42,453 nucleotides of DNA. It comes from an uncultured Gammaproteobacteria bacterium. Lineage in GTDB: Bacteria; Patescibacteriota; Patescibacteriia; Magasanikbacterales; GWA2-37-8. The stretch covers positions 1 through 42,453 of the forward strand of contig CAYUBH010000002.1 in the NCBI GenBank assembly GCA_964442985.1. The letters run 5' to 3'. The notes below the pieces were generated by a model, which saw nothing but the letters and a program-made list of their open reading frames with translations, did not search any database and was not told the DNA's origin. Below are positions 7,320-19,001 of this stretch, piece by piece. How positions within the stretch are numbered: the stretch's first letter is position 1; the number at the start of each line of letters is the position of its first letter. Both the position numbers and the translations under genes were made by a program.

Positions 7320-7832
7320 ATGCGACAGAATCAACTTAATCGAACTATCAAACTGATGCGCCGAACAGGGGATAAGGCCCTCATTCTCGATGGCGAGAGC
7401 GATGACATTTTTGTCCTCATGAACCTGGATAATTACGAGGAAATCCTCGATGTACTCGATGTCCCGCCAGCGCCAATAAGCCCGCTCCCAACCAGAATAA
7501 TCGCTGAGGAGTCAAAAAAAGAGCCTATCCAGGAAGAAAATACGATGGAAACCGAGGCGCTCGACGACTATGTCCTCGACGAGGTAATTGACGAAGAGGA
7601 AAAAGCTCAAAAAACAGCTGAAAGTATCCCTGAAATCACCTCGGCCACACCGAGAGCCGAACCGGCAGTGGAAGAAGTAACGATTGTTCCAGTTCCTTTT
7701 GCCGACGGGCAAACACCAATTTCTTTGCTAAAACAAGAGGAAAAAACCGATGATGACGGTAGCGAAGAGGGCTTGGCTGATGTACCAAACGATGGGGAAG
7801 AAGAAAAGTTCTACCTCGAACCAGTAGAATAG
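7320..7832 (+). CDS. acidic protein with YefM/Phd antitoxin-like N-terminal domain and long Asp/Glu-rich tail
   Basis: 170 aa. KALILDGESDDIFVLMNLDNYEEILD resembles E. coli YefM [26 protein letters not shown] (recalled from memory). No adjacent toxin ORF. TAG stop. Confidence 0.45.
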   Translation: MRQNQLNRTIKLMRRTGDKALILDGESDDIFVLMNLDNYEEILDVLDVPPAPISPLPTRIIAEESKKEPIQEENTMETEALDDYVLDEVIDEEEKAQKTAESIPEITSATPRAEPAVEEVTIVPVPFADGQTPISLLKQEEKTDDDGSEEGLADVPNDGEEEKFYLEPVE

Positions 7833-7869: not shown

Positions 7870-7898
7870 TTGCCAAGATGAGAAATCTCTGCTATAAT
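7870..7898 (+). promoter_or_regulatory. promoter of tuf (TTGCCA-17-TATAAT, TG-extended)
   Basis: TTGCCA 7870-7875, spacer ending in TGC, TATAAT 7893-7898. Confidence 0.6.
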
Positions 7899-8017: not shown

Positions 8018-9208
8018 ATGGCTGAATTTATTCGGTCCAAACCACACGTGAATATTGGTACCATTGGTCACGTTGACCACGGTAAAACCACTACCACAGC
8101 AGCGATTATGAAAGTGCTCTCCCTTCGTGGGGGTGGTGCGAAAGACATCGGTGTTGATGGTCTTGATAAGAGTCCTGAAAGTAAGGCTCGCGGTATTACT
8201 ATCTCTACAGCACACGTAGAATACGAAACCGAAAAACGCCATTACGCACACGTTGACTGTCCTGGCCACGCTGACTATGTTAAAAACATGATCACTGGTG
8301 CTGCTCAGATGGACGGTGCGATTCTCGTTGTGTCCGCTGCTGACGGCCCTATGCCTCAGACTCGTGAACATATCCTCTTGGCTCACCAAGTCGGTGTTCC
8401 ATACATCGTTGTTTACTTGAACAAAGTTGACATGGTGTCTGATCCTGAACTCGTTGACCTCGTTGAGGCCGAAGTTCGTGATTTATTGACTAAATACGGC
8501 TTCCCTGGCGATAAGAGTCCAGTTGTTCGTGGTTCTTCTATCAAAGCATTGGAAAACCCAACTGACGAAGCAGCTATCAAGCCAATTCTTGATCTCATGA
8601 AGGCTTGTGATGAATATATCCCAGAGCCAACTCGCGCTACTGACAAACCTTTCCTCATGCCAGTTGAAGATGTCTTCTCTATCGAAGGCCGTGGTACTGT
8701 GGTAACTGGTCGTATCGAACGTGGTATCCTCAAAATCAACGATGAAGTTGAAATTGTTGGTCTCCGCGAAGAAAACATGAAGACTGTTGTTACTGGTATC
8801 GAAATGTTCAACAAGCAGTTGAAAGAAGGTCAAGCTGGTGATAACGCCGGTGTTCTTCTCCGTGGTACTAAGAAAGAAGAAGTTGAACGCGGTATGGTCT
8901 TGGCTAAGACTGGTACTGTTAAAGCTCACACTGAGTTTGAAGCTGAAATCTACGTCTTGACTAAAGACGAAGGTGGCCGCCACAAACCTTTCTTCAAAGG
9001 TTACAAACCACAGTTCTACATCCGTACAACTGACGTAACTGGTGAGATCGAACTCCCAGCAGGTACTGAAATGGTTATGCCTGGCGACAACGTTTCTATC
9101 AAAGTGAAACTCATTGTTCCAGTTGCTATCGAAGAAAAGATGAACTTCGCTATTCGCGAAGGTGGTCGCACCGTAGGTTCCGGTGTCGTTGTAAAAATTA
9201 CTAAATAA
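8018..9208 (+). CDS. tuf: elongation factor Tu
   Basis: 396 aa with [17 protein letters not shown] and NKVD motifs. Confidence 0.98.
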
Positions 9209-9216
9209 TCCGACTA

Positions 9217-9244
9217 GGGGCTGCTCGAGAGAGCGGCCCCTTTT
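9217..9244 (+). terminator. intrinsic terminator after tuf
   Basis: GGGGCTGCTC-GAGA-GAGCGGCCCC (10 bp, one G-U pair) followed by TTTT. Confidence 0.7.
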
Positions 9245-9284
9245 CGTGGTTTTGTTCATTTGAAGCTCTTTAATTGTTACTCAC

Positions 9285-9635
9285 ATGTCGTCCGCAGCTA
9301 AAACTACAACTCAAGTCAAGAAAGAAGAAGCAGGAAGCCGTATTCGCATTAAGATTCGCGCTTACGATAATCGCATTATCGATCAAGCTACGAAAACTAT
9401 TGTGGAAACCGCTGAACGCCATGATGCGCAGGTAGTAGGTCCTGTACCATTACCAACAGAAAAGGTGAAATTCACCGTCAACCGCTCCACTTTCGTCCAC
9501 AAAGACGCTCGTGAGCAGTTTGAAATGCGTATTCACAAACGTTTGGTAGACATCATGAACGCCAGTCCAAAGTGTATTGACGCCCTCATGAGTTTGAGCC
9601 TTCCAGCTGGTGTCGATATTGAAATTAAGATGTAA
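9285..9635 (+). CDS. rpsJ: 30S ribosomal protein S10
   Basis: 116 aa. [10 protein letters not shown]...TKTIVETA...GPVPLPT core, with an N-terminal extension of about 12 aa. Confidence 0.95.
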
Positions 9636-9650
9636 TCTGGGTCACCCAGA
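9636..9650 (+). promoter_or_regulatory. short hairpin immediately after the rpsJ stop (TCTGGG-TCA-CCCAGA)
   Basis: 6-bp perfect stem read directly. Function unknown. Confidence 0.3.
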
Positions 9651-9688
9651 GACTACACAGCGTCAAAAGTCGGTTTTTTGGCTGACTA

Positions 9689-9717
9689 TTGACAAAATAT
9701 GTATCTAGAGGTATACT
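9689..9717 (+). promoter_or_regulatory. near-consensus promoter inside the rpsJ-rplC gap (TTGACA-17-TATACT)
   Basis: TTGACA 9689-9694, 17-nt spacer, TATACT 9712-9717. Confidence 0.6.
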
Positions 9718-9723
9718 CTTGGT

Positions 9724-10007
9724 ACATAACAATAGTGTTATTTCGATAAATAAGATCTCAAGCGGGCAACCGCGAGAAACCATTTAGGCGAAGCGATACT
9801 ATTTTCAGGAGAATTATCTTAACATTTTACGAAACAAAAGCCATTCTTGCACCACGATTCAACCCGTGTGTGTGACCTAAACAAGCACGTAACGACGAGT
9901 CAAGCTTTTTAGATCAAAATCCTTGCTCCAAGTCACAGCTTTGTCGGTCAAAGAAGGCTAGAGGCGCCAGCCTTGAGTTCGCTCAAGTTCAGCGCTTCTA
10001 GTTTTTT
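9724..10007 (+). ncRNA. candidate structured RNA of about 285 nt, or attenuator-type leader of the rplC operon (family unknown)
   Basis: Bounded by the promoter at 9689-9717 and the terminator at 9958-10007. No ORF of 60 aa or more, and no ATG on the + strand between 9724 and 9957. Several internal hairpins, including a GNRA-capped one at 9757-9776. Confidence 0.45.
9958..10007 (+). terminator. intrinsic terminator inside the rpsJ-rplC gap
   Basis: CTAGAGGCGC / GCGCTTCTAG (10 bp) encloses TTGAG-TTCG-CTCAA and is followed by TTTTTT 10002-10007. Confidence 0.75.
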
Positions 10008-10141
10008 GTTAAGTAGACATTAAGCTAGTTTTCACCATTGACAAGCTACCTGAAAACCCCTCGCCGATGGACATCTCTACAAAGATGCTGAGGTGTTCCT
10101 TTACGAGGTTACCGGGTAGAGAACAATGTTTTTATTAAGAG

Positions 10142-10831
10142 ATGCGTATGAAATTCATTCTCGGGAAAAAAGTAGGCATGACACAAGTATTCGCTGCTAA
10201 CGGCGATGTAATTCCGGTTACTAAAGTAGTTGCTGGTCCTTGTCAGATTGTACAAGTAAAGGATGGAACTAAAGATAATCATGTTGCTTTGCAGCTTGGT
10301 TTTGAAAAAGTTCGCGATTTTCGTGTGAGCAAGCCAGAAGCTGGCCACTTGAAAGATCTTGATACCGTTCGTCATTTGAACGATTTCGGTATTGAAAAAG
10401 TTGACGGTATTGAACGCGGTGATGTTATCACTGTTGAAACATTCGTACCGGGCGACGTTGTATCAGTTATTGGCACCTCCAAAGGTAAAGGTTTTGCTGG
10501 TGTTGTGAAACGCCATCATTTCCGCGGTGCTCCAGCAACCCACGGTCACAAACACGATTTACGTGCTCCTGGTTCCATTGGTGCTGGTGGTGTGCAACGC
10601 GTGTTCAAAGGTATGCGTATGGCTGGCCGTATGGGTGGCGATCGCGTTACTGTAAAGAACTTGGAAATTGTTGCTGTTGATCCACAAACAAACGAACTTT
10701 TGATTAAAGGCGCTGTTCCTGGTGGTCGCAACTCGATCCTCATGATCAGTGGTACTGGTGAACTGAAAGTAATGAAAAAAGCCGCTCCAGTACAAGTAAC
10801 AGAAGCTACTCCAGCTCCTCAAGCTGCGTAA
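10142..10831 (+). CDS. rplC: 50S ribosomal protein L3
   Basis: 229 aa with a KFILGKKVGMTQVF N-terminus. ATG 10148 is an equally plausible start. Confidence 0.95.
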   Translation: MRMKFILGKKVGMTQVFAANGDVIPVTKVVAGPCQIVQVKDGTKDNHVALQLGFEKVRDFRVSKPEAGHLKDLDTVRHLNDFGIEKVDGIERGDVITVETFVPGDVVSVIGTSKGKGFAGVVKRHHFRGAPATHGHKHDLRAPGSIGAGGVQRVFKGMRMAGRMGGDRVTVKNLEIVAVDPQTNELLIKGAVPGGRNSILMISGTGELKVMKKAAPVQVTEATPAPQAA

Positions 10832-11502: not shown

Positions 11503-11895
11503 ATGGCTATCTTTAAGAAAGACAAAAAAGAAGCAGCTCCAAAGAAAGCTACCAAAAAAGTAGCTACTCCTAAAGTTGCTGAAACAACCGCTGGTGTAAA
11601 AACCACAACGACTGCTCACGGTATTATCATTCGCCCAATCGTCACCGAAAAAGCTGCGTTGGCTCAAGGCCAAAACAACAAATATAGTTTTGTTGTCGCG
11701 CTCGATGCGAAAAAGGTGCAAGTTAAAACTGCGATTCAGGAAATGTACGGTGTGAAACCAGTGTCTGTGAATATTGTCAACGTACAAGGTCATCGTGTTC
11801 GCTTTGGCGCAAGTCAGGGTCGCAAATCCGATACCAAAAAAGCTATCGTTACCCTGCCAGCAGGTCAGACGATTACTATTCATGAAGGTGTCTAA
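11503..11895 (+). CDS. rplW: 50S ribosomal protein L23
   Basis: 130 aa. IIRPIVTEKA core follows an N-terminal Lys/Ala-rich extension of about 30 aa. Confidence 0.9.
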   Translation: MAIFKKDKKEAAPKKATKKVATPKVAETTAGVKTTTTAHGIIIRPIVTEKAALAQGQNNKYSFVVALDAKKVQVKTAIQEMYGVKPVSVNIVNVQGHRVRFGASQGRKSDTKKAIVTLPAGQTITIHEGV

Positions 11896-17921: not shown

Positions 17922-18542
17922 TTGTTTACCCCTATTATGAATAATACCAACTCCAATAGTACTGGTCGCGGAGGTTTCCGCAAAGACCGTCGCCAAGAAG
18001 AGAAGTCAGAATTTGATCAATTTATCTTGGACTTAGCTCGCGTGACTCGTGTTACCCAGGGTGGTAAACACATGAGCTTCCGCACCTGTGTTATCTTGGG
18101 TGATCGCAAAGGCCGTGTAGCTTTTGGTGTCGCTAAAGGTAAAGATGTGCAAGGGGGCGTGGAAAAAGCTGTTCGCCAAGCAAAAAAGAACATGATTCGC
18201 GTACCGCTTGTTCGCGAAACTATCCCACACGCAGTTTTGTATAAATATAAAGCCGCTGCCGTGCTCTTGAGACCAGCTCCAAAAGGTTCTGGTATCATCG
18301 CTGGTGGTGCCGCTCGCGTCGTTTTTGAAATGGCTGGTATCCCAAATGTATCCTGTAAGATCTTGGGTACTACCAAAAACAAAATCGCGATTGTGAAAGC
18401 TACCTTCGAAGCTTTGAAAAGTTTCAAACGCCACAGTGCTCCAGTAAAAAAGTTTGAAATGGCTAAAAAAGAAGAAGTAGCCGTTGAAGCAAAAGCAGAA
18501 GAAAAGAAGCCAGCTAAAAAAGTTGCTTCTAAAAAAGCTTAA
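17922..18542 (+). CDS. rpsE: 30S ribosomal protein S5 (N- and C-terminal extensions)
   Basis: VTRVTQGGKHMSFR and GIIAGGAAR motifs. Start is TTG 17922 or, more likely, ATG 17937. Confidence 0.93.
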   Translation: MFTPIMNNTNSNSTGRGGFRKDRRQEEKSEFDQFILDLARVTRVTQGGKHMSFRTCVILGDRKGRVAFGVAKGKDVQGGVEKAVRQAKKNMIRVPLVRETIPHAVLYKYKAAAVLLRPAPKGSGIIAGGAARVVFEMAGIPNVSCKILGTTKNKIAIVKATFEALKSFKRHSAPVKKFEMAKKEEVAVEAKAEEKKPAKKVASKKA

Positions 18543-18563
18543 GGCTCTCATTACTACACTTGT

Positions 18564-19001
18564 ATGTTAAACGTTCACACAATTAAACCAGCCCGTGGTG
18601 CCAAACACAGTAAAAAGCGTGTTGGTCGCGGTAATGCTTCCGGTCATGGTACTTCTTCCACTCGTGGTGGTAAGGGTCAGACTGCTCGCTCTGGTGGTAG
18701 CCGTGGTTTGAAGATGTTAGGCTTCAAATTCTTGCTCCAATCTACTCCAAAATTGCGCGGTTTCACCAGTCGTCAAACCAAACCAGCTGAAGTCTATCTC
18801 AGTGATTTGGAAAAACATTTTGACGCTGGCGCTACTGTTACTTTGGCTGCACTTCAAGAAAAAAATCTTATCGGCGCTACGGTAAAACAAGTAAAAATTG
18901 TTGGCACCGGCGAACTTAAGAAAAAAGTGTCTTTGTCTGGCATCTTGGCTACCAAAGGCGCGGCTGCAGCTATTACTAAAGCTGGTGGCGATATCAAATA
19001 A
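18564..19001 (+). CDS. rplO: 50S ribosomal protein L15
   Basis: 145 aa with KRVGRGNASGHGTSSTRGGKGQ. Follows rpsE after only 21 nt, so there is no L30 gene. Confidence 0.95.
   Translation: MLNVHTIKPARGAKHSKKRVGRGNASGHGTSSTRGGKGQTARSGGSRGLKMLGFKFLLQSTPKLRGFTSRQTKPAEVYLSDLEKHFDAGATVTLAALQEKNLIGATVKQVKIVGTGELKKKVSLSGILATKGAAAAITKAGGDIK

Follow-up and report, generated by a model that had tools for sequence, protein, structure and literature searches.

The 42,453-nucleotide (nt) stretch analysed here (hereafter the window; contig CAYUBH010000002.1 of assembly GCA_964442985.1, placed by GTDB in the Magasanikbacterales of the Patescibacteriota) carries, between the ribosomal protein genes rpsJ and rplC, a conserved structured RNA belonging to a family absent from Rfam. 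On balance, we consider this RNA to be probably a cis-acting transcription attenuator leader for the gene cluster headed by rplC, with a ribosomal protein as its probable effector. The RNA family is newly described, and the kind of control proposed for it is already familiar. An earlier note on this DNA, composed from the letters and their open reading frames alone, had offered two readings of the spacer, a leader for the rplC-rplD... operon and a stand-alone RNA of ~285 nt; the first fits the comparative evidence presented below, whereas the second is disfavoured as a primary role.

The spacer occupies positions 9636-10141, between rpsJ (uS10; 9285-9635, plus strand; NCBIfam NF001861/TIGR01049, 148 bits, E 7e-44) and rplC (uL3; 10142-10831, plus strand; NCBIfam L3 match, 232 bits), and these gene coordinates agree with the 506-nt gap described in the earlier note. 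It measures 512 nt if rplC begins at the ATG at 10148, the position from which relatives begin to align. In this supercluster of ribosomal-protein genes, every other intergenic gap from rplC to map is 30 nt or shorter, the downstream order being rplC, rplD, rplW, rplB, rpsS, rplV, rpsC, rplP, rpmC, rpsQ, rplN ... rplO, secY, adk and map. Among the open reading frames (ORFs) of the window, none of 60 or more amino acids (aa) lies in the gap, as had been noted before; one minus-strand ORF of 88 aa (10109-10375) overlaps only its final 33 nt. Plus-strand ATGs occur in the gap at 9699, 10067, 10085 and 10126 only, which bears out the earlier observation that the plus strand has none between 9724 and 9957, and the small ORFs of the gap, including one of 32 aa, match no protein family.

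The closest relatives of rplC (76-56% identity) come from metagenome-assembled genomes (MAGs) of Patescibacteria, from Candidatus Magasanikbacteria and then from Buchananbacteria, Falkowbacteria and Uhrbacteria, and the rpsJ-rplC spacing in these Patescibacteria is 200-460 nt, as against 6-130 nt in most bacteria sampled. The possibility raised in the earlier note, that the spacer might prove unconserved and unstructured in relatives, is not borne out: related folded elements, 230-300 nt long, occupy the same spacer at 27 other public Patescibacteria loci, always on the rplC strand and directly upstream of rplC. According to their 5' hairpin, P1, we sorted the spacers into form A (the window, L001-L005, L081, L083, L084 and L086, with L082 a duplicate of L003), form B (L007, L012, L014, L017, L087, L092 and L108) and form C (L006, L009, L015, L016, L034/L138, L068, L098, L123-L125 and L134). 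The three are treated as one family because in each a purine block and a terminator follow P1. All share a simple, A-rich and conserved internal loop of 3-5 x 3-5 nt.

In form A, P1 consists of a middle helix of the type NNAAAU/AUUUNN, an internal loop of AAGA opposite (A)AAAC (AACC in the window), an inner helix starting with U-A and a tip of 8 to 71 nt; the internal loop letters are invariant, and the flanking helices and the lengths of the inserts vary. In form B the loop reads A(A/G)AG(A/C), AAAGA in five of the seven loci, opposite AAAC, with a middle helix such as AUGAAG/CUUCAU; the P1 architecture is predicted alike in all 17 form A and form B sequences. Form C exchanges the two strands of the loop, giving the order basal helix-(U)AAC-UCUN...NAGA-AAGU(G)-basal helix. 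Beyond P1, form A continues with an SD-like (Shine-Dalgarno-like) GGAG, an A-rich linker, AAGCCA, one or two variable hairpins and the closing segment AAGGCUAGAAG...CUUCUAG-U6.

Support for this family comes from both covariance models and pair counts. A covariance model of the form A core (R1) matches all form A loci (52.5-30.1 bits, E 2e-8 to 3e-3; in the window 46.5 bits, E 5e-7, as the single match in its 42 kb), its best match outside form A has an E of 0.08, and on form B it reaches only 13-18 bits. A single covariance model for all forms fails because of a 1-nt register shift in the 5' loop that is beyond MAFFT, and between its anchors a MAFFT alignment of form A over the full length cannot be relied upon. 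The earlier note had proposed that related spacers be examined for covariation, and compensatory pairs were found in all three forms. In counts which, being drawn from small alignments of related sequences, speak to consistency and not to formal significance, but on which three independent forms agree, 90% of cells are paired and 7 of 10 pairs compensatory in form A (alignment A3), 92.9% and 7 of 10 in form B (A5), and 91.8% and 9 of 10 in form C (A7); no shuffle out of 500 matches any of these, and controls with slid partners are 35-59% paired. A hand-written structural descriptor yielded 19 matches within 700 nt upstream of rplC and 37 in the other ~1.6 Mb, compared with ~21 in total in shuffles.

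The element in the window is bounded by the two signals that the earlier note had recognised, namely a near-consensus promoter (TTGACA-17-TATACT), which scores 11/12 and from which a transcript start near 9724 is predicted, and, ~285 nt downstream, a strong intrinsic terminator. The latter (CTAGAGGCGC...GCGCTTCTAG followed by T6) has a folding energy of -22.6 kcal/mol, and its pattern is found a single time in the window, where the expected number is 0; among the 10 form A loci the base of its stem is conserved while the top varies freely. The intervening RNA (9724-10007, ~284 nt) folds at -82 kcal/mol, compared with -58.9 +/- 4.1 for shuffles (z -5.63, 0/200), and the gap as a whole yields a z of -8.09 on the plus strand and -3.91 on the minus strand. 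Three hairpins had previously been proposed within this RNA. The GNRA-capped one at 9757-9776 stands, as the tip of P1, whereas those at 9726-9741 and 9939-9953 give way, in the minimum-energy fold and the comparative structure, to longer-range helices (the P1 outer stem, P2b and P2).

Both signals recur in relatives, the promoter in a form-dependent manner. All 10 form A loci carry TTGACA-17-TAnnnT in the same place, with P1 starting 5-14 nt past the predicted start; in form B a promoter is present in L014 only, and in form C it is mostly lacking. Because forms B and C are mostly without a promoter of their own, they appear to be internal to a tuf-rpsJ-rplC transcript. A hairpin with a U-tract closes every element 9-137 nt before rplC (for form A without the window, 77, 36, 56, 11, 58, 47, 64, 40 and 14 nt; for form B, 16-54 nt at all but one of the seven loci), a distance too short in nearly all cases to accommodate a promoter. 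Between the terminator and rplC, no promoter-like site of at least 9/12 was found on the plus strand of the window (10008-10141), and 16 of the 17 form A and form B loci, the window among them, have no promoter-like site there. Since such a site is missing after the terminator, except in L007, rplC would be transcribed only by read-through.

Downstream of P1, 26 of the 27 leaders carry a purine block equivalent to the SD-like block of the window, an SD, perfect or nearly so (GGAGGU or AGGAG), without a conserved start codon; in L002, L068, L098, L125 and L134 the block reads GGAGGUAAAU. By eye, neither starts nor frames of a leader peptide after this block are conserved among the window, L001, L002, L081 and L134. 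The P2 domain of form A follows. Its closing helix pairs AGCC (9839-9842) with GGCU (9956-9959) and UUCUU (9844-9848) with AAGAA (9951-9955), is stronger than in shuffles, with a z of -3.2 in the window and p<=0.03 at 8 of the 10 loci of form A, and varies compensatorily across form A in its second part (UUCUU/AAGAA, UUUCU/GGAAA, UCUU/AAGA). The position of hairpin P2a is taken by a hairpin of differing sequence in every form A locus, and GGCUAGA(A/G)G is invariant in this form. In general, the stem pairs adjoining the U-tract matter most for termination, and an overlap of P2 with these U-tract-proximal pairs could explain the invariant GGCUAG...CUAG-U6 beside a freely varying stem top.

Alternative pairings with the terminator are most apparent in the other two forms. 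In the core of form C (L098, L125, L134 and L068), AAAYCAG(C), located 1-3 nt past GGAGGU, forms a helix with (G)CUGGUUU, the 5' strand of the terminator; this helix is the minimum-energy state in L098, L125 and L134, and the antiterminator helices of this group have z values of -1.5 to -2.5 each. Equivalent pairings in other registers are found in L034, L123 and L124. In form B, the segment just 3' of P1 in L017 pairs with the terminator 5' strand over 10 bp plus (-19 kcal/mol, z -2.5), and in L014/L092 AAUCCAGA pairs with UCUGGAUU. A long-range pairing of the linker with a conserved GUUAAG after the U-tract was also considered and, at a z of ~-1.2, was not significant.

Searches for known identities of the element were negative. 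With Rfam 15, the whole window yielded two tRNAs only, the gap yielded only noise at E<=10 (at most 17 bits) and 20 related loci yielded no match, so that the Rfam comparison suggested in the earlier note assigns the gap to no family; ARAGORN reported no tRNA or tmRNA. Together these results concur with the earlier statement that signatures of RNase P RNA, tmRNA, SRP RNA and 6S RNA are missing. The silence of Rfam does not extend to RNAs of the S10-leader type, because Rfam 15 misses the Escherichia coli S10 leader too (L163, NC_000913.3 3452800-3453800; no family even at E<=0.01). Nothing resembling the gap was found in phage genomes and viral contigs, and neither R1 nor the terminator pattern revealed a second copy of the element in the window. 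Kink-turn and loop-E readings of the P1 internal loop were set aside by inspection, as the strand lengths do not fit.

From the conservation, structure, position and operon logic of the element, we infer the regulation itself, its effector and its direction of action. Transcription would start at ~9724 from the near-consensus promoter, and the transcript would fold into P1, a linker with the orphan SD-like block, the P2 domain and a strong intrinsic terminator, where RNA polymerase would either stop at ~10007, giving a 284-nt RNA, or read through into rplC. With no other promoter for rplC, the output of rplC-rplD-rplW-rplB... (S10-spc) would be set by read-through. A ribosomal protein encoded downstream, when in excess over free rRNA, would bind the P1 loop and thereby increase termination; in relatives an antiterminator helix would compete for the terminator 5' strand, and P2 would be the equivalent in the window. 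The P1 loop is the putative recognition site because its letters are invariant amid covarying helices and variable inserts, and a small invariant loop with covarying flanks that tolerates an exchange of its strands is typical of ribosomal-protein binding sites. The effector would most likely be a downstream-encoded ribosomal protein, with uL4 suggested by the precedents of the E. coli S10 leader and the L4-Archaeoglobi candidate discussed below, and uL3 by adjacency.

Several observations weigh against attenuation of this kind. The terminator looks strong, and substantial read-through must therefore be assumed. The model gives no role to the conserved orphan SD-like block, which could serve 30S subunits for docking or belong to the footprint of the protein. 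The AGCC/GGCU core of P2 is invariant in form A and accordingly offers no covariation, and P2 in the window and in form A abuts the base of the terminator, sharing only its bottom 2-3 pairs. Other candidate switches in this form were rejected: a form A antiterminator between the P1 3' strand and the terminator 5' strand has a z of ~0 and is significant in L017 alone, pairing of the SD-like block with the P1 5' strand is shuffle-like (mean z -0.5 to -0.7), and its pairing with the terminator 3' strand has mean z values of -0.6 and -0.15 and is strong in L002 only. In L007 a promoter-like site of 10/12 follows the terminator, and the element there could be a 3' untranslated region of rpsJ. Finally, no convincing mimic of the element was found in E. 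coli rRNA: R1 has no match in rrnB (16S, 23S and 5S), a survey of 7-mers shared with rRNA is dominated by A/U-rich words, and a loose scan with a loop descriptor returned 150 mostly spurious matches. In L009 (form C, from a Falkowbacteria MAG, ~2620-2665), the exact 8-mers GCCGUAAC and GGGAGAAG are common to helix 62 (H62) of E. coli 23S rRNA (1682-1706, L161) and stand in the same order around a hairpin in both, but this resemblance is limited to L009 and other loci are not convincing. H62 adjoins uL14 and bL19 (PMC11814078). Slight likenesses of the loop to H62, H7 and H99 were judged an over-reading and are not counted as evidence.

The leader might instead be an attenuator that senses another signal, either the docking of free 30S subunits or of ribosomes at the orphan SD-like block or a small molecule, as a riboswitch would; we regard this as unlikely. 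The near-universal SD without a start codon argues for it, as do the 5' strand of the form C core antiterminator, which begins 1-3 nt past the SD, and the many conserved unpaired letters and multi-helix P2 domain of form A. The loop shared by the three forms is, in contrast, a simple one whose strands can trade places (C versus A and B), which suits an irregularity recognised by a protein better than a ligand pocket, Rfam riboswitches gave no matches, and recruitment of 30S subunits by an SD devoid of a start codon would have to be assumed. A broader version, to which we give slightly less credence, is a clade-wide sensor of ribosome supply in Magasanikbacteria-like Patescibacteria, in which a modular RNA, with its recognition loop in three topologies of which one is strand-swapped, would gate the whole S10-spc-alpha cluster at a single terminator and free 30S subunits on the SD, beside the antiterminator strand, would set read-through, alone or together with a P1-bound protein; if true, ribosome abundance would feed back directly on the transcription of ribosomal protein genes. 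Equally doubtful in our view is a stand-alone gene for a trans-acting small RNA of ~284 nt, with transcription of rplC a by-product of leaky termination. A near-consensus promoter and a strong terminator are indeed kept in all 10 form A loci, and the terminated RNA, being highly structured, would accumulate; forms B and C, however, keep the hairpin, the SD-like block and the terminator mostly without the promoter, the element is confined, across the window and the 6-kb loci, to this spacer and to the strand of rplC, rplC has no other promoter, and the window holds neither a second copy nor a match to a housekeeping RNA family.

A passive operon boundary, or an element of mRNA processing or stability that protects the tuf-rpsJ message at its 3' end and the rplC message at its 5' end, or offers RNase sites, without any sensing, is a shade less probable again. 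It would accommodate the two form B loci (L007 and L087) in which P1 begins at the rpsJ stop codon, the promoter-like site after the L007 terminator and the small hairpins that follow rpsJ in the window (9636-9650 and 9662-9693). An invariant loop set in covarying helices in three forms, combined with alternative terminator and antiterminator structures, nonetheless exceeds the needs of a stability hairpin, and 230-300 nt is more than a bare boundary requires. That the gap is long for a tightly packed cluster could also suggest the remnant of a decayed gene or mobile element, a reading that is effectively refuted: ORFs of at least 60 aa are absent from the gap, the one of 32 aa matches no family, conservation follows the rules of RNA (compensatory pairs and hairpin inserts of variable length), and the element occurs once in the window and has no phage or viral similarity.

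Attenuation by a ribosomal protein has close functional precedents. The E. coli S10 leader, of ~170 nt, combines uL4- and NusA-dependent transcription attenuation with translational control. Like it, the Patescibacteria element is a long structured leader of the L3-L4-L23-L2... block with an intrinsic terminator inside it, on whose read-through the output depends, and with presumed autogenous feedback. The E. coli leader, however, lies 5' of rpsJ and the rpsJ-rplC gap in that species is 32 nt, whereas the Patescibacteria element lies 3' of rpsJ, which stays with tuf; the latter is also longer, at 230-300 nt, and contains the orphan SD-like block. R1, which compares P1 only, found nothing above 5.4 bits in the E. 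coli S10 leader region. With neither position nor structure in common, the element, although it would work in a similar way, falls outside the family of the E. coli S10 leader. Among 20 tabulated leaders, the L4-Archaeoglobi candidate is the only one directly upstream of rplC, rplD, rplW and rplB (Eckert & Weinberg 2020, PMC7247131). As in archaea, S10 is left outside the controlled block in the window, but the archaeal motif is different and much smaller; the window matches no Rfam 15 family, although the presence of this motif in Rfam is unconfirmed. To our knowledge, the L4-Archaeoglobi motif carries no terminator. A further parallel is offered by the pyr leaders of Bacillus, in which the protein PyrR directs terminator/antiterminator control. 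As in these leaders, where the hairpin binds the protein, form C and some members of form B have a hairpin 5' of an antiterminator helix and a terminator helix that exclude each other; the two families are unrelated, and the competing helix of form A, unlike that of PyrR-pyr, overlaps the terminator by 2-3 nt only.

RNAs that mediate ribosomal-protein feedback are known to us mostly from Proteobacteria and Firmicutes, and we know of none described for the candidate phyla radiation, whose members have reduced ribosomes and regulation that is out of reach of culture-based study. If attenuation by a ribosomal protein is correct, one terminator would be the entry point for the control of ~25 ribosomal and translation genes. 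The operon boundary has moved to a position after rpsJ, as in archaea. The occurrence of one recognition loop in three topologies constitutes a natural experiment for RNA-protein recognition, and alignments A3, A5 and A7, each supported by covariation, can serve as seeds for a model with which to annotate the family in Patescibacteria genomes. The features of the element in the window are collected in Table 1.

Table 1. Features predicted in the rpsJ-rplC spacer, with positions in the 42,453-nt window.
Feature	Position	Strand	Details
Sigma-70-type promoter	9689-9717	+	-35 TTGACA 9689-9694, 17-nt spacer, -10 TATACT 9712-9717; 11/12
P1, long irregular hairpin	9731-9803	+	Outer stem 9731-9739/9795-9803; 9741-9745/9790-9794; then core; minimum-energy fold
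P1 core, putative binding site	9742-9792	+	Covariance model R1
P1 middle helix	9747-9751 / 9782-9786	+	UAAAU / AUUUA
P1 internal loop	9752-9755 opposite 9778-9781	+	AAGA opposite AACC
P1 inner helix	9756-9759 / 9774-9777	+	UCUC / GAGA
P1 tip	9762-9773	+	GCGG-GCAA-CCGC
Orphan SD-like block	9807-9813	+	AGGAGAA; no start codon after it; sequence
A-rich linker	9814-9838	+	3' of SD-like block
P2 5' strand	9839-9848	+	AGCC-A-UUCUU; pairs with 9951-9959 in transcript folded without terminator 3' half
P2a hairpin	9850-9872	+	CACCACG...CGUGUGUG; minimum-energy fold
P2b, long variable hairpin	9874-9949	+	Minimum-energy fold; variable or absent in relatives
P2 3' strand	9951-9959	+	AAGAA-GGCU; final two bases 9958-9959 are the first two of the terminator stem
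Intrinsic terminator	9958-10007	+	10-bp base CUAGAGGCGC/GCGCUUCUAG, nested UUGAG-UUCG-CUCAA, U6 at 10002-10007
Untranslated stretch, terminator to rplC	10008-10141	+	134 nt; lineage-specific hairpin ~10034-10128

The long hairpin predicted in the last of these features has no counterpart in other form A loci, where the equivalent stretch measures 11-77 nt. At the opposite end of the spacer, the second of the two small hairpins 3' of the rpsJ stop codon extends into the -35 box of the promoter. The Uhrbacteria L010/L091, placed in none of forms A-C, have a leader of different architecture, in which pairing is predicted between a 5' CAGGAGUAAG and an anti-SD-like ACCUCCUUACG and a strong terminator comes next. 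The rpsJ-rplC spacers of L096 (502-928) and L121 (1631-2114) look protein-coding, with long ATG-initiated frames, and not RNA-like. Long rpsJ-rplC gaps outside the Patescibacteria, in Weeksella (L080, 534 nt), Sinomicrobium (L075, 290 nt), a Flavobacteriaceae MAG (L049, 250 nt) and an Acidimicrobiia MAG (L032, 2106 nt), might hold other elements or genes.

Upstream of the spacer, tuf (8018-9208; NCBIfam EF-Tu match) is preceded by a promoter at 7870-7898 (11/12, extended -10), and the interval between tuf and rpsJ contains a 10-bp GC-rich hairpin at 9217-9245 (GGGGCUGCUC-GAGA-GAGCGGCCCC) followed by U4. Because no good promoter was found ahead of rpsJ, this gene appears to rely on read-through from the tuf promoter. 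Farther upstream, at 7320-7832, lies a strongly acidic ORF of 170 aa without an NCBIfam match. Downstream, uL3 extends ~25 aa past the family model as a C-terminal tail, and uL23 (11503-11895) has a Lys/Ala-rich N-terminal extension of ~36 aa, its family match beginning at residue 37. At 17922-19001, rplO directly follows rpsE with no rpmD (L30) between them, and this missing gene is consistent with a genome of the candidate phyla radiation.

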